Below are positions 20,993-30,800 of a stretch of 64,000 nucleotides of DNA, piece after piece. Below the pieces are notes generated by a model that saw nothing but the letters and a program-made list of their open reading frames with translations, searched no databases and had not been told where the DNA came from. This stretch comes from Eledone cirrhosa. Taxonomy: Eukaryota. The position numbers and the translations under genes were made by a program. Each line of letters opens with the position of its first letter. The first letter of the stretch is position 1. Location of the stretch: positions 414,470,001 through 414,534,000 of the forward strand of contig OZ024741.1 in the NCBI GenBank assembly GCA_964016885.1. Reading direction: 5' to 3'.

Positions 20993-21329
20993 CTGAAGGT
21001 GGGTGGCTTAGTGGTTACAGAATTGGATTCACAATTGTATGCTTGTGAGTTCTATTCTCAGACCAGGGGATGTGTTAAAACCTTGAGCAAGACACTTTAT
21101 TTCATGTTGCTCCTTATGTGACCAGTAGATAGTATCAACAATAGAAAGACCAATGGAAACATTGTTTCCTTGGTCTGATCTGATAGTCTGCTCCTTTCTT
21201 CTGTGACTAGTAGATAGTATCAACAATAGAAAGACCAATGGAAGCATTGCTTCTTTGGTTCAATTTGATAAGTTCCACCTCATTCAATAAGTGAATGAGG
21301 TCCGGGATCTTAACTTTTTCTCTCTTCTC
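20993..21329 (+). mobile_element. tRNA-derived SINE flanked by 13-bp target-site duplication
   Basis: A-box-like GTGGCTTAGTGG (~21003) and B-box-like GTGAGTTCTATTC (~21045), then CCTTGAGCAAGACACTTTATTTCA, a central motif I recall from octopus SINEs. The direct repeat TAAACTCCCTTTC flanks the element at 20980-20992 and 21330-21342. Confidence 0.75.
21118..21272. repeat. Two-copy 85-bp-period tandem duplication inside the SINE
   Basis: GTGAC(C/T)AGTAGATAGTATCAACAATAGAAAGACCAATGGAA.CATTG occurs at ~21118 and ~21203. Confidence 0.9.
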
Positions 21330-22197: not shown

Positions 22198-22356
22198 CTT
22201 GTTCTCACAGGTCGTTGGTACATGAGACATTGGTAGAAGGATATCTACCATGTTTTCATCATGTACCCTCTTAAGGGGTTCTGCACAGTCACTGCAGACA
22301 TACAATGGAGGTGGTTTGTCCCTTGACTGAATTGCAAGTGCAGGGTTTGGACACAT
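22198..22356 (-). CDS. unc79: unc-79 homolog internal coding exon (159 bp, phase 0-0): MCPNPALAIQSRDKPPPLYVCSDCAEPLKRVHDENMVDILLPMSHVPTTCENK
   Basis: Acceptor ttcaatatttcAG (CT at 22357-22358 on plus), donor AAG|GTAAAC (AC at 22196-22197), 53 stop-free codons. The pattern DKPPPLYxCxxC...D(I/V)LLP...C(E/Q)xK matches UNC79 proteins as I recall them (vertebrate and insect). Confidence 0.92.
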
Positions 22357-23004
22357 CTGAAATATTGAAGCACATGATGGGTGGTGGAAAATACATAATT
22401 ATAAGGCCAGGGTTTGGAGACATCTGAAATACTGGGGTAGGTGGTGGAAAATCCTGAATTATAAGGGCAGGGTTTGGAGACATCTGAAATACTGGGGTAG
22501 GTGGTGGAAAATACTGAATTATAAGGGCAGGGTTTAGAGATATCTAAAATACTGGGGTAGGTGGTGGAAAATACTGAATTATAAGGGCAGGGTTTGGACA
22601 CATCTGAAATACTGGGGTAGGTGGTGGAAAATACTGAATTATAAGGGCAGGGTTTGGAGATATCTGAAATACTGGGGTAGGTGGTGGAAAATACTGAATT
22701 ATAAGGGCAGGGTTTGGAGACATCTGAAATACTGGGGTAGGTGGTGGAAAATACTGAATTATGAGGGCAGGGTTTAGAGATATCTAAAATACTGGGGTAG
22801 GTGGTGGAAAATACTGAATTATAAGGGCAGGGTTTGGAGATATCTAAAATACTGGGGTAGGTGGTGGAAAATACTGAATTATAAGGGCAGGGTTTAGAGA
22901 TATCTGAAATACTGGGGTAGGTGGTGGAAAATATTGAATTATAAGGGCAGGGTTTGGAGATATCTGAAATACTGGGGTAGGTGGTGGAAAAAATTGAATT
23001 TCAA
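22340..23004. repeat. 60-bp minisatellite (~11 units) derived from the unc79 intron/exon junction
   Basis: The minus-strand unit TTATAATTCAGTATTTTCCACCACCTACCCCAGTATTTCAG|ATGTCTCCAAACCCTGCCC copies the real junction ATATTTCAG|ATGTGTCCAAACCCTGCAC. The exon-proximal unit is 67 bp; the others are 60 bp. Confidence 0.97.
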
Positions 23005-23192
23005 GAACAATACTTAACTATTTGGAAAAATAATATGATGGAAGGTTTTAATATAAAGATAAACATTTTTAAAATGTGCAGTTTTATATTTTAAAACTGG
23101 GGGTGATTTTAGATAGAACTGGGGGGGGGGGGGGTCTGGGGTGGCGTGGTGAGTAGTTTTATATCTTAGAACTGGGGGGAGGGGGGAGCTTG

Positions 23193-23400
23193 AAGTGCAG
23201 GGAGATCAAAATTGACGGTAGTTACGGAGTAGGTAGACCCAGAAAAACCTGGAACGATTTGATAAATTCCGACCTTACAAACTTACACCTCTCTAAGACA
23301 ATGTCACTGGAGCGAGATGTTTGGTGCTACGCAGTAATACAGAAGACCCGCCTTGCCTAAGTACAAAGTGAAACCTAGTCAGTAGGCACCTCTTAACCAA
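23193..23400 (+). mobile_element. RTE-clade LINE 3' fragment (ORF C-terminus plus start of 3' UTR)
   Basis: 23193-23360 translates without internal stops as KCREIKIDGSYGVGRPRKTWNDLINSDLTNLHLSKTMSLERDVWCYAVIQKTRLA*. It contains the GRPRKTW...DL..L.L...M...R..W motif typical of RTE ORF ends. Confidence 0.8.
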
Positions 23401-23465
23401 ATATACTATTTTTCAGCAGCTTAATCAATCAATCTATATATTGATCTCAATAAACACTGACTTAC

Positions 23466-23530
23466 CTTGACAGCTTGACATTTTCCTGAGTTGACACAGT
23501 TTTCTCTCTGACACAGAACAGGTGGCCATG
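23466..23530 (-). CDS. unc79: unc-79 homolog internal coding exon (65 bp, phase 1-0): (P)WPPVLCQRENCVNSGKCQAVK
   Basis: Acceptor atgtgctccAG (CT at 23531-23532), donor AAG|GTAAGT (AC at 23464-23465). Phase fits both neighbouring exons. W-x-P-x-x-CQ-x-x-x-C...AVK matches UNC79. Confidence 0.9.
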
Positions 23531-23557
23531 CTGGAGCACATATAGATAAATATACAT

Positions 23558-24109
23558 GAGAGGGAGTGGGGATGTGTGAGTGGGAGAGGTGATAAGGGAG
23601 TGGGGATATGTGTGTGGGAGTGGGGATGTGTGAGAGGGAGTGGGGATGTGTGTGTATGAGTGGGGATGTGTGAGTGGGAGAGGTGATATGTGAGTGGGAG
23701 TGGGGTTGTGTGAGTGGGAGTGGGGATGTGTGAGTGGGAGTGGGGATGTGTGAGTGGGAGTGGGGATGCGTGAGTGGGGGGGGGGAGAGGTGATATGTGA
23801 GTGGGGGGATGTGTGAGTGGGGGGATGTGTGAGTGGGAGAGGTGATATGTGAGTGGGAGAGGTGATATGTGTGTGAAAATGTGAGTGGGTATGTAGTTGA
23901 GTGTGAATGTGTGTGTGTGTCTGTATGTGAGAGAGGAGATATGTATGTGTGTGAGAGGGAATATGTGTGTATGTGTGTGTGAATGTGTGTATGTGAGGGG
24001 GGATGTTTGTGTTTTTGTGTGTGTATGTGTATGACAATATGAATGAGGATGTGAGTGTGTGTGTATGACAATGAGTGTGTGTATGACAATATGAGTGTGT
24101 GTGTGTGTG
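23558..24109. repeat. Degenerate GT/GA-rich minisatellite (~20-bp GAGTGGGGATGTGTGAGTGG) grading into (GT)n microsatellite
   Basis: Visible low-complexity repeat filling most of the 670-bp intron 23531-24200. It is the source of the His/Thr/Pro-rich spurious ORFs. Confidence 0.95.
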
Positions 24110-24144
24110 CCTATGTTAGAACTCATTATAATGATACAGAACCA

Positions 24145-24175
24145 ATTATTCCTGGCCACTAGGGCCAGGAATAAT
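24145..24175. other. Perfect 13-bp stem hairpin
   Basis: ATTATTCCTGGCC-actag-GGCCAGGAATAAT. Confidence 0.9.
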
Positions 24176-24200
24176 GCGAGACAACAATAGATTTACTTAC

Positions 24201-24330
24201 GTTGGTATTTATAATGGATGCCACGTCTTTCTGAATGTGAAGGGTTTAGTTGGGGCCAGTAATAGAACAGTAAATTAGCAGCCGGGGCCCTTGCAGAAGG
24301 AGGTCCATAGGCAATTACACTGAGCAGGTC
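24201..24330 (-). CDS. unc79: unc-79 homolog internal coding exon (130 bp, phase 0-1): DLLSVIAYGPPSARAPAANLLFYYWPQLNPSHSERRGIHYKYQ
   Basis: Acceptor tacatctttatttAG (CT at 24331-24332), donor AAC|GTAAGT (AC at 24199-24200). DLLxVIAYGP...PA..(L/M)LF.YWP.L.P is the conserved UNC79 N-terminal-region motif as I recall it. Confidence 0.92.
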
Positions 24331-24746: not shown

Positions 24747-24815
24747 ATGGAGAATTAATATAATGTTTTAACTATAACTTGCTTATTCTTTCTCCATTTA
24801 TTCAATGTTGAATTC

Positions 24816-27800
24816 TGCAGACCGTAGCCTAACACTGTACAATGACTGGAGCTGTGCAGCCCGTAGCCTAACACTGTACAATGACTGGAGCAGGGCAGCC
24901 CGTAGCCTAACACTGTACAATGACTGGAGCTGTGCAGCCCGTAGCCTAACACTGTACAATGACTGGAGCAGGGCAGCCCGTAGCCTAACACTGTACAATG
25001 ACTGGAGCAGGGCAGCCCATAGCCTAACACTGTACAATGACTGGAGCAGGGCAGCCCGTAGCCTAACACTGTACAATGACTGGAGCTGTGCAGCCCGTAG
25101 CCTAACACTGTACAATGACTGGAGCAGGGCAGCCCGTAGCCTAACACTGTACAATGACTGGAGCTGTGCAGCCCGTAGCCTAACACTGTACAATGACTGG
25201 AGCTGTGCAGCCCGTAGCCTAACACTGTACAATGACTGGAGCAGGGCAGCCCGTAGCCTAACACTGTACAATGACTGGAGCTGTGCAGCCCGTAGCCTAA
25301 CACTGTACAATGACTGGAGCTGTGCAGCCCGTAGCCTAACACTGTACAATGACTGGAGCTGTGCAGCCCGTAGCCTAACACTGTACAATGACTGGAGCTG
25401 TGCAGCCCGTAGCCTAACACTGTACAATGACTGGAGCAGGGCAGCCCGTAGCCTAACACTGTACAATGACTGGAGCTGTGCAGCCCGTAGCCTAACACTG
25501 TACAATGACTGCAGCTGTGCAGCCCGTAGCCTAACACTGTACAATGACTGGAGCAGGGCAGCCCGTAGCCTAACACTGTACAATGACTGGAGCTGTGCAG
25601 CCCGTAGCCTAACACTGTACAATGACTGGAGCTGTGCAGCCCGTAGCCTAACACTGTACAATGACTGGAGCTGTGCAGCCCGTAGCCTAACACTGTACAA
25701 TGACTGGAGCTGTTCAGCCCGTAGCCTAACACTGTACAATGACTGGAGCAGGGCAGCCCGTAGCCTAACACTGTACAATGACTGGAGCTGTGCAGCCCGT
25801 AGCCTAACACTGTACAATGACTGGAGCAGGGCAGCCCGTAGCCTAACACTGTACAATGACTGGAGCTGTGCAGCCCGTAGCCTAACACTGTACAATGACT
25901 GGAGCAGGGCAGCCCGTAGCCTAACACTGTACAATGACTGGAGCAGGGCAGCCCGTAGCCTAACACTGTACAATGACTGGAGCAGGGCAGCCCGTAGCCT
26001 AACACTGTACAATGACTGCAGCTGTGCAGCCCGTAGCCTAACACTGTACAATGACTGGAGCAGGGCAGCCCGTAGCCTAACACTGTACAATGACTGCAGC
26101 TGTGCAGCCCGTAGCCTAACACTGTACAATGACTGGAGCTGTGCACACCGTAGCCTAACACTGTACAATGACTGCAGCTGTGCAGCCCGTAGCCTAACAC
26201 TGTACAATGACTGGAGCTGTGCAGCCCGTAGCCTAACACTGTACAATGACTGCAGCTGTGCAGCCCGTAGCCTAACACTGTACAATGACTGGAGCAGGGC
26301 AGCCCGTAGCCTAACACTGTACAATGACTGGAGCTGTGCAGCCCATAGCCTAACACTGTACAATGACTGGAGCTGTGCAGCCCGTAGCCTAACACTGTAC
26401 AATGACTGGAGCTGTGCAGCCCGTAGCCTAACACTGTACAATGACTGGAGCTGTGCAGCCCGTAGCCTAACACTGTACAATGACTGCAGCTGTGCAGCCC
26501 GTAGCCTAACACTGTACAATGACTGCAGCTGTGCAGCCCGTAGCCTAACACTGTACAATGACTGGAGCAGAGCAGCCCGTAGCCTAACACTGTACAATGA
26601 CTGCAGCTGTGCAGCCCGTAGCCTAACACTGTACAATGACTGGAGCTGTGCAGCCCGTAGCCTAACACTGTACAATGACTGCAGCTGTGCAGCCCGTAGC
26701 CTAACACTGTACAATGACTGCAGCTGTGCAGCCCGTAGCCTGACACTGTACAATGACTGGAGCTGTGCAGCCCGTAGCCTAACACTGTACAATGACTGGA
26801 GCAGGGCAGCCCGTAGCCTAACACTGTACAATGACTGCAGCTGTGCAGCCCGTAGCCTAACACTGTACAATGACTGGAGCTGTGCAGCCCGTAGCCTAAC
26901 ACTGTACAATGACTGCAGCTGTGCAGCCCGTAGCCTAACACTGTACAATGACTGGAGCTGTGCAGCCCGTAGCCTAACACTGTACAATGACTGGAGCTGT
27001 GCAGCCCGTAGCCTAACACTGTACAATGACTGCAGCTGTGCAGCCCGTAGCCTAACACTGTACAATGACTGGAGCAGGGAAGCCCGTAGCCTAACACTGT
27101 ACAATGACTGCAGCTGTGCAGCCCGTAGCCTAACACTGTACAATGACTGGAGCTGTGCAGCCCGTAGCCTAACACTGTACAATGACTGCAGCTGTGCAGC
27201 CCGTAGCCTAACACTGTACAATGACTGGAGCTGTGCAGCCCGTAGCCTAACACTGTACAATGACTGCAGCTGTGCAGCCCGTAGCCTAACACTGTACAAT
27301 GATGCAGCTGTGCAGCCCGTAGCCTAACACTGTACAATGACTGGAGCTGTGCAGCCCGTAGCCTAACACTGTACAATGACTGCAGCTGTGCAGCCCGTAG
27401 CCTAACACTGTACAATGACTGCAGCTGTGCAGCCCGTAGCCTAACACTGTACAATGACTGGAGCTGTGCAGCCCGTAGCCTAACACTGTACAATGACTGG
27501 AGCAGGGCAGCCCGTAGCCTAACACTGTACAATGACTGGAGCTGTGCAGCCCATAGCCTAACACTGTACAATGACTGGAGCTGTGCAGCCCGTAGCCTAA
27601 CACTGTACAATGACTGGAGCTGTGCAGCCCGTAGCCTAACACTGTACAATGACTGGAGCTGTGCACACCGTAGCCTAACACTGTACAATGACTGGAGCTG
27701 TGCAGCCCGTAGCCTAACACTGTACAATGACTGCAGCTGTGCAGCCCGTAGCCTAACACTGTACAATGACTGGAGCAGGGCAGCCCGTAGCCTAACACTG

Positions 27801-30800
27801 TACAATGACTGCAGCTGTGCAGCCCGTAGCCTAACACTGTACAATGACTGCAGCTGTGCAGCCTGTAGCCTAACACTGTACAATGACTGGAGCTGTGCAC
27901 ACCGTAGCCTAACACTGTACAATGACTGCAGCTGTGCAGCCCGTAGCCTAACACTGTACAATGACTGGAGCTGTGCAGCCCGTAGCCTAACACTGTACAA
28001 TGACTGCAGCTGTGCAGCCCGTAGCCTAACACTGTACAATGACTGGAGCAGGGCAGCCCGTAGCCTAACACTGTACAATGACTGGAGCTGTGCAGCCCAT
28101 AGCCTAACACTGTACAATGACTGGAGCTGTGCAGCCCGTAGCCTAACACTGTACAATGACTGGAGCTGTGCAGCCCGTAGCCTAACACTGTACAATGACT
28201 GGAGCTGTGCAGCCCGTAGCCTAACACTGTACAATGACTGGAGCTGTGCACACCGTAGCCTAACACTGTACAATGACTGGAGCTGTGCAGCCCGTAGCCT
28301 AACACTGTACAATGACTGCAGCTGTGCAGCCCGTAGCCTAACACTGTACAATGACTGGAGCAGGGCAGCCCGTAGCCTAACACTGTACAATGACTGCAGC
28401 TGTGCAGCCCGTAGCCTAACACTGTACAATGACTGCAGCTGTGCAGACCGTAGCCTAACACTGTACAATGATGCAGCTGTGCAGCCCGTAGCCTAACACT
28501 GTACAATGACTGGAGCAGGGCAGCCCGTAGCCTAACACTGTACAATGACTGGAGCTGTGCAGCCCGTAGCCTAACACTGTACAATGACTGCAGCTGTGCA
28601 GCCCGTAGCCTAACACTGTACAATGACTGGAGCAGGGCAGCCCGTAGCCTAACACTGTACAATGACTGCAGCTGTGCAGCCCGTAGCCTAACACTGTACA
28701 GTGACTGCAGCTGTGCAGCCCGTAGCCTAACACTGTACAATGACTGGAGCAGGGCAGGCCGTAGCCTAACACTGTACAATGACTGGAGCTGTGCAGCCCG
28801 TAGCCTAACACTGTACAATGACAGCAGCTGTGCAGCCCGTAGCCTAACACTGTACAATGACTGGAGCAGGGCAGGCCGTAGCCTAACACTGTACAATGAC
28901 TGAAGCTGTGCAGCCCGTAGCCTAACACTGTACAATGACTGGAGCAGGGCAGCCCGTAGCCTAACACTGTACAATGACTGCAGCTGTGCAGACCGTAGCC
29001 TAACACTGTACAATGACTGGAGCTGTGCAGCCCGTAGCCTAACACTGTACAATGACTGGAGCTGTGCAGCCCGTAGCCTAACACTGTACAATGACTGCAG
29101 CTGTGCAGCCCGTAGCCTAACACTGTACAATGACTGCAGCTGTGCAGCCCGTAGCCTAACACTGTACAATGATGCAGCTGTGCAGCCCGTAGCCTAACAC
29201 TGTACAATGACTGGAGCAGGGCAGCCCGTAGCCTAACACTGTACAATGACTGGAGCTGTGCAGCCCGTAGCCTAACACTGTACAATGACTGCAGCTGTGC
29301 AGCCCGTAGCCTAACACTGTACAATGACTGGAGCTGTGCAGCCCGTAGCCTAACACTGTACAATGACTGCAGCTGTGCAGCCCGTAGCCTAACACTGTAC
29401 AATGACTGGAGCTGTGCACACCGTAGCCTAACACTGTACAATGACTGCAGCTGTGCAGCCCGTAGCCTAACACTGTACAATGACTGCAGCTGTGCAGCCC
29501 GTAGCCTAACACTGTACAATGACTGGAGCTGTACAGCCCGTAGCCTAACACTGTACAATGACTGCAGCTGTGCAGACCGTAGCCTAACACTGTACAATGA
29601 TGCAGCTGTGCAGCCCGTAGCCTAACACTGTACAATGACTGGAGCAGGGCAGCCCGTAGCCTAACACTGTACAATGACTGGAGCTGTGCACACCGTAGCC
29701 TAACACTGTACAATGACTGGAGATGTGCAGCCCGTAGCCTAACACTGTACAATGACTGCAGCTGTGCAGCCCGTAGCCTAACACTGTACAATGACTGGAG
29801 CTGTGCAGCCCGTAGCCTAACACTGTACAATGACTGGAGCAGGGCAGCCCGTAGCCTAACACTGTACAATGACTGGAGCTGTGCAGCCCGTAGCCTAACA
29901 TTGTACAATGACTGGAGCTGTGCAGCCCGTAGCCTAACACTGTACAATGACTGGAGCTGTGCAGCCCGTAGCCTAACACTGTACAATGACTGGAGCTGTG
30001 CAGCCCGTAGCCTAACACTGTACAATGACTGGAGCTGTGCAGCCCGTAGCCTAACATTGTACAATGACTGGAGCTGTGCAGCCCGTAGCCTAACACTGTA
30101 CAATGACTGGAGCTGTGCAGCCCGTAGCCTAACACTGTACAATGACTGGAGCTGTGCAGCCCGTAGCCTAACACTGTACAATGACTGGAGCAGGGCAGCC
30201 CGTAGCCTAACACTGTACAATGACCGGAGCTGTGCAGCCCGTAGCCTAACACTGTACAATGACTGGAGCAGGGCAGCCCGTAGCCTAACACTGTACAATG
30301 ACTGGAGCTGTGCAGCCCGTAGCCTAACACTGTACAATGACTGGAGCAGGGCAGCCCGTAGCCTAACACTGTACAATGACTGGAGCAGGGCAGCCCGTAG
30401 CCTAACACTGTACAATGACTGGAGCAGGGCAGCCCGTAGCCTAACACTGTACAATGACTGCAGCTGTGCAGCCCGTAGCCTAACACTGTACAATGACTGG
30501 AGCAGGGCAGCCCGTAGCCTAACACTGTACAATGACTGCAGCTGTGCAGCCCGTAGCCTAACACTGTACAATGACTGGAGCAGGGCAGGCCGTAGCCTAA
30601 CACTGTACAATGACTGGAGCTGTGCAGACCGTAGCCTAACACTGTACAATGACTGGAGCTGTGCAGACCGTAGCCTAACACTGTACAATGACTGCAGCTG
30701 TGCAGCCCGTAGCCTAACACTGTACAATGACTGGAGCAGGGCAGGCCGTAGCCTAACACTGTACAATGACTGGAGCTGTGCAGACCGTAGCCTAACACTG

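Follow-up and report, generated by a model that had tools for sequence, protein, structure and literature searches.

Intron gigantism has been described for the Y-loop fertility genes of Drosophila. The introns of kl-3 and kl-5 reach megabase size and are built from simple satellites, for instance (AATAT)n; both genes are Y-linked and expressed in spermatocytes only, and the available sections of two reports (PMC6508621, PMC11207136) document their transcription. Transcribed satellite introns of this type depend on dedicated RNA-binding proteins. Single-locus minisatellites, in turn, occur in introns of human neuronal genes. According to the parts of these sources at hand, PTPRN2 and DLGAP2 are subtelomeric, VNTR-laden brain genes, with a brain enrichment that vanished after gene-length correction (Linthorst et al. 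2020, PMC7608644), and a 30-bp VNTR in intron 3 of CACNA1C has a median length of 5.7 kb and a longest type of 13–61 kb (PMC12452837). A different kind of tandem repeat, the 'mirage' minisatellite, has been described in amphioxus Adh3 and in the globin genes BflGb6 and BflGb9 (PMC3087553, in part); in this class, the mRNA is spliced at the authentic boundary. For cephalopods, the open-access main texts that we searched contain no description of array-filled introns and none of unc79 in octopus; the available parts of five articles (PMC9795677, PMC6279123, PMC10700109, PMC9068888, PMC13282606) hold nothing on such introns.

Here we consider a 64-kb window of the Eledone cirrhosa genome, that is, the whole stretch of DNA analysed (C2:414,470,001–414,534,000, on a 416.3-Mb scaffold), whose positions are counted below from its first base. 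A sequence-only reading had proposed that three minus-strand segments with AG/GT ends and matching phases join into 118 stop-free codons of UNC79, with only the middle segment inside a listed open reading frame. All of this was borne out. The segments correspond to unc79 exons 7, 8 and 9, with C2:414.00–414.84 Mb examined for exons. Exon 7 (24201–24330, minus strand, 130 nt, between tag and gtaagt) covers residues 207–250 of the Octopus vulgaris protein and is 100% identical to O. vulgaris P0020 over 43 residues. Exon 8 (23466–23530, minus strand, 65 nt, between cag and gtaagt) was placed by tblastn with the same protein, and its phases fit those of its neighbours; it lies in frame within the open reading frame at 23421–24089. 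Exon 9 (22198–22356, minus strand, 159 nt, between cag and gtaaac) covers residues 272–324. Spliced together, the three give 354 nt, or 118 codons, and the other two frames contain 3 and 7 stops.

The identity of the peptide is supported by both profile and structure searches. Exons 7 and 9 match the Pfam UNC-79 family (PF14776) at profile positions 143–184 (E 1.8e-12, 47 bits) and 209–263 (E 9e-12, 44.7 bits), well above the curated cut-off of 27 bits. Exon 8, with only 21 residues, misses the cut-off (E 0.026), but its match at positions 188–208 falls between the other two, so that the three exons follow each other at consecutive profile positions. In PDB, exons 9 and 7 gave significant E-values (1e-10 and 7e-7, respectively) for UNC79 chains only (7w7g, 7sx3, 7wji).

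The exons lie on a 4.1-kb island between two tandem arrays delimited with TRF, one of a 43-mer (3–20708) and the other of a 39-mer (24816–64000). As had been suggested, the island holds no further exons, and neither does the rest of the 64-kb window hold any UNC79 exon besides these three. The intron that separates exons 7 and 8 (670 nt; 23531–24200, minus strand) is for the most part an AC-rich simple repeat, and an 85-bp two-copy tandem duplication is located at 21113–21270. In some frames the 39-mer is a stop-free unit of 13 codons, which yields spurious open reading frames of more than 800 residues on both strands (24755–28468, 24805–27327). The long frames in this array are an artefact of that unit.

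Flanking exons were expected beyond the two arrays on this contig, and they are indeed there, in collinear order. Using tblastn with orthologous proteins, we built by hand a model of 25 collinear GT-AG exons of 38–286 nt covering residues 1–1148. The closest of 33 orthologues tested was O. vulgaris P0020 (92% identity over raw tblastn hits). Exon 1 is located at C2:414,834,656, and exons 2–25 run down to 414,195,692; these 24 exons join to 1,141 codons without a stop, and 1,120 of 1,140 residues (98.2%) are identical to residues 9–1148 of P0020. The span from exon 1 to exon 25 is 638,965 bp, of which 0.54% is coding and 84% tandem repeat. The sequence from 414.10 to 414.84 Mb contains no N, hence the modelled gene has none. 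PF14776 has ten matches in the whole assembly, seven of them above the cut-off, and since all ten fall at this locus, in order, no second unc79 copy was seen. Judged by its sequence, the locus appears to be an intact octopod unc79 gene, the first half of which (aa 1–1148) is modelled.

Full-length UNC79 has about 2,400 residues, which raises the question of the second half. A 416-residue O. vulgaris query for residues 1149–2383 had its best match in the assembly at E 0.18, at another place, and a 273-residue query from the orthologue P0016 (88% identical over the 5′ half) had no match in the assembly; no exons for these residues were found in C2:414.00–414.19 Mb either. For comparison, a query of only 60% identity did find seven 5′ exons of unc79. 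One possible reading is a 5′ half of unc79 that has been truncated or silenced and is no longer transcribed through its arrays. We regard such a decayed gene as very improbable, given an open frame of this length and identity without a single frameshift, splice sites that are all intact, and PF14776 matches confined to this one place. Moreover, 123 kb beyond exon 25 there is a 200-N assembly gap flanked by (AT)n (C2:414,072,381–414,072,580), into which the intron after exon 25, of at least 123 kb, runs and which can hold the remainder. The simplest reading is that the 3′ half was lost in this gap, although unc79 may instead be truly truncated. LINE-like elements with frames of up to 1,037 residues are present at 414.17 Mb and are 97% identical to a copy in unc79 intron 21, and there are many further retroelement-like frames at C2:414.00–414.07 Mb.

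The modelled part of the gene is dominated by a few enormous introns. The median unc79 intron is 3,468 nt, and the median reported for O. vulgaris is 2,467 (PMC10700109, in part), but six of 23 unc79 introns exceed 30 kb. The sequence-only reading had estimated the intron upstream of exon 7 at more than 39 kb, mainly 39-mer, and the one downstream of exon 9 at more than 22 kb, mainly 43-mer. Both estimates held. The intron between exons 6 and 7 measures 56,532 nt, 91% of which is a 39-mer array of 51,274 bp (about 1,315 copies), and that between exons 9 and 10 measures 109,563 nt, 88% of which is a 43-mer array of 96,622 bp (about 2,249 copies). The same reading had put the satellite in unc79 introns at about 60 kb; the introns are mostly satellite, as it held, yet the amount is far greater. 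Intron 4, between exons 4 and 5, is 271,359 nt long, and 99.7% of it is an uninterrupted 270-kb array of a 55-mer (4,918 copies, C2:414,554,655–414,825,078) that stops 181 nt short of exon 5. These three giant arrays (51, 97 and 270 kb) make up 65% of the unc79 span, and arrays in all amount to about 500 kb, which RNA polymerase II would presumably have to transcribe. Of the other large introns, one of 35,313 nt contains a 29-kb 42-mer array and one of 34,277 nt a 28-kb 14-mer and a 6-kb 29-mer array; that of 50,639 nt is only 11% tandem.

As far as exact matches go, each giant array is private to one intron. For the exact 39-mer unit, the genome-wide count of 219 equals the count in its array; the same is true of the 24-nt core of the 43-mer (1,564) and of the unit or core of the 55-mer (2,774). 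In every case the matches are on a single strand, and the counts cover exact matches only, so that diverged relatives elsewhere are possible. In the neighbouring DNA examined, no source for the 39-, 43- or 55-mer unit was found, either local or dispersed. Privacy does not extend to every array in the region, since one 61-mer forms small arrays at C2 414.55, 414.245, 414.27 and 411.0 Mb, and a 49-mer is found at 412.0 and 414.12–414.17 Mb. The unit of another 61-mer array matches short single-copy repeats dispersed nearby (21 hits), which suggests birth from an element that we take to be SINE-like. Between exons 10 and 11, the intron contains a degenerate run of telomere-like hexamers (410 bp), and the 43-mer unit also contains telomere-like words.

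How does this architecture compare with the described systems, as far as the available parts of the sources go? As in Drosophila Y-loop genes, conserved coding exons are split by tandem-repeat introns, and the share of non-coding DNA exceeds 99%. However, the largest bounded unc79 intron falls short of the megabase introns of those genes. Moreover, a simple satellite with a unit of about 5 bp is shared there among several introns, whereas the unc79 units are 39–55 nt long and belong to one intron each; the agreement of genome-wide with local counts marks them as single-locus giant minisatellites. Nor is unc79 Y-linked: it lies close to one end of a 416-Mb scaffold, and its transcription is deduced from DNA. 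In PTPRN2, DLGAP2 and CACNA1C, on the other hand, single-locus minisatellites with units above 15 bp likewise occupy introns of neuronal genes that lie close to chromosome ends, with growth by internal tandem duplication. The difference here is one of scale, with three giant arrays in a single gene, the largest at least four times the largest reported there, and of composition, as units of 42–54% GC (43-mer, 41–43%; 39-mer, 54%; 55-mer, about 45% from its consensus) do not belong to the class above 60% GC enriched at human ends. On this comparison, unc79 is closer in kind to the subtelomeric VNTR-rich human brain genes than to Y-loop genes.

Array lengths are those of the assembly, and the internal structure of the arrays is such that assembly errors have to be considered. 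Exact 300-mers recur within the giant arrays at spacings of 1–18 kb, with 24–40% of positions repeating an earlier one, and the missing 3′ half near a gap indicates that the region is hard to assemble. It could be that the exons are real and the arrays between them inflated or mis-joined by the assembler. We think there is only a slim chance of this. The longest exact internal repeats (4.9 kb in the 55-mer, 3.2 kb in the 43-mer and 1.7 kb in the 39-mer array) should be spannable by long reads of the length that we assume, and units deviate by 3–4% from the consensus, with 65–387 variants; together, these features would argue against gross mis-assembly. In addition, the gene is free of N, and the exons on either side of every array follow one another in perfectly collinear order.

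At exon 9 the island contains a repeat of another kind, absent from the earlier reading. Upstream of the real acceptor, at 22380–23000 (minus strand), ten copies of a 60-mer each comprise the exon-9 acceptor and the first 30 exon bases. The unit crosses the intron–exon boundary and repeats the splice AG, as mirage minisatellites do. Compared with the original, the copies are identical at 23–27 of 30 positions in the exon part and at 9–10 of the last 12 intron bases. Scored with a small matrix derived from unc79's own 24 sites, not with a trained model, the seven CAG copies reach 6.0 and the three TAG copies 3.2, as against 6.9 for the real site. All copies are out of frame, so that use of any one would cause a +1 shift; the final AG alone gives the frame of the orthologue. 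This 60-mer is the one clear case at the 48 exon boundaries of unc79, apart from two single extra hits. It resembles the amphioxus mirages in its tandem copies of intron end and exon start, with the AG repeated, ahead of the authentic exon. It differs from them in its cephalopod host and in having ten of ten copies out of frame, and it is known from DNA only.

We also scored splice sites in the giant arrays with the same matrix and counted poly(A) hexamers. Most 43-mer units carry a donor-like AAG/GTYAGT on the sense strand (1,112 plus 963, or about 2,100); the 963 are identical to the exon-25 donor 9-mer and outscore the real exon-9 donor. The 55-mer has a weaker donor-like site, also on the sense strand, and the 39-mer has none. 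In both of the two largest arrays, a donor-like site recurs once per unit on the sense strand, and the antisense strand has almost none. Such a pattern is what might be expected if the giant arrays, like the Drosophila Y loops, served a selected function in a neuronal gene, delaying or tuning unc79, with the donor-like sites of the 43-mer loading U1 and keeping the polymerase going. The coding share of 0.54% would also be in line with Y-loop loci that are more than 99% non-coding (PMC6508621, in part). Nevertheless, we consider a selected function unlikely. Donor-like sites are found on six of 28 strands of unrelated arrays and in 6–21% of shuffled units (10–21% where shuffles are set against this particular reading), and because unrelated arrays carry them we do not read them as selected: donor or U1 enrichment is not above background. 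Furthermore, the 39-mer has no such site, and a cis function common to all arrays fits poorly with units that are unrelated from one array to the next.

Other signals are scarce. On the sense strand of the giant arrays there are 0.3–2.9 acceptor-like sites and 0–0.34 poly(A) hexamers per kb, compared with 3.3 and 1.8, respectively, in the gene's non-tandem DNA. Shuffled units show the same scarcity, so a purifying filter is not supported; for a selected depletion of poly(A) signals, in particular, chance suffices (0.4–2.4% in shuffles; one of 28 background strands with one). Recursive splicing at the AG/GT of the 43-mer was likewise rejected, as the AG has no pyrimidine tract and acceptor-like sites number 0.3 per kb.

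UNC80 is the partner subunit of UNC79 in the same complex. The part of unc80 covered, its C-terminal domain at C5:47.5 Mb, is compact: its 1,079 profile positions spread over 47 kb, and the largest gap measures 13.8 kb, which also speaks against functional arrays. As housekeeping controls we used six cullin and nine chaperonin genes, with spans of 4–31 kb; the largest gap among controls, unc80 included, is 18 kb. None of 101 gaps in these 16 genes exceeds 30 kb, as against six of 23 unc79 introns, the control gaps between matches being upper bounds on introns (three single-hit rows were dropped, and unc80 and some control searches used a stricter first look). A neuron-specific explanation of the giant introns is not supported. 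Accordingly, the likeness to Drosophila Y fertility genes drawn in the sequence-only reading stands for the tandem-repeat introns but not for the neural tie, given the compact unc80, the private 39–55-nt units and the frequency of arrays at scaffold ends.

That frequency emerged when 2-kb samples were scored as wholly inside an array or not. A grid fixed beforehand across the last 12 Mb of C2 gave ten of 20 samples in arrays, compared with three of 20 in the C2 interior (p 0.04); with added samples, the count for the last 12 Mb is 16 of 31, some sharing one array. At seven other scaffold ends the figures are 12 of 32 versus three of 28 in the interior (p 0.02). Scaffold ends are patchworks of arrays, enriched relative to the interior, on the basis of few samples, some in the same array. 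Array units mostly differ between samples, and one C5 end gave none of four. Exon 1 of unc79 lies 1.46 Mb from the end of C2, and the modelled gene occupies 1.46–2.1 Mb, within 5 Mb of the scaffold end; the last 10 kb of C2 end in (AT)n, without telomere repeat, so these distances to the true chromosome end are lower bounds. Two chaperonin genes, one on C21 and one on C19, lie 4.7–4.9 Mb from the scaffold start and are compact (9.7 and 6.2 kb), which means that nearness to an end does not always bring swelling. Since no second array-filled gene was mapped, the position effect is drawn from DNA samples, not genes. Interior arrays also occur on C2, at 20, 260 and 340 Mb, and C1, C2 and C3 are three scaffolds of 379–443 Mb, compared with 135 Mb for C5. 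If the large scaffolds are fusions, the interior arrays of C2 could mark old ends, but this is speculation.

Taken together, these observations make it probable that exons 7–9 belong to an unc79 gene whose introns hold single-locus arrays of 15–270 kb that grew in place and are tolerated by-products of a repeat-rich chromosome-end zone. We envisage that slippage first duplicated a short local stretch, a seed of the kind exemplified by the 60-mer at the exon-9 boundary, and that unequal exchange and block duplication later amplified this seed, with which the exact repeats recurring at 1–18 kb would agree. RNA polymerase II would read through the arrays, with elongation taking hours: rates in other animals are 1–4 kb/min, corresponding to about 3–10 h for the unc79 span. 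Exon definition would then pick the short exons out of their islands of unique sequence. The arrays may persist because their few acceptor-like sites and poly(A) signals on the sense strand would produce neither pseudo-exons nor early ends. The octopod unc79 arrays are likely neutral.

Genes of this kind are prone to mis-annotation. One octopus annotation pipeline, as described in the available part of its report, sets the intron limit at 20 kb (PMC9795677), and genes such as unc79 would be split by it. At the same time, a unique repeat in each giant intron provides a built-in, intron-specific and thousand-fold amplified FISH target. Tandem-repeat intron gigantism has been studied almost only in Drosophila spermatocytes, with shared simple satellites. 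In unc79, a somatic gene, one could measure directly in neurons how long elongation takes across 50–270 kb of pure repeat, and how co-transcriptional splicing and exon definition proceed there. It is conceivable, though rather unlikely, that octopod chromosome ends harbor a whole class of expressed genes with private 10–270-kb intronic minisatellites, that neurons transcribe half a megabase of repeat for UNC79 with Y-loop-like processing (for example, U1 on the 43-mer), and that the timing or dose of the NALCN leak-channel complex depends on array length. Should the arrays be neutral, they show how much repeat a conserved gene tolerates. The expansion of introns by repeats in unc79, a conserved neuronal gene, is real and larger than first noted; it is most likely a consequence of position at a chromosome end, and it points to what looks like an undescribed architecture of octopod chromosome ends.
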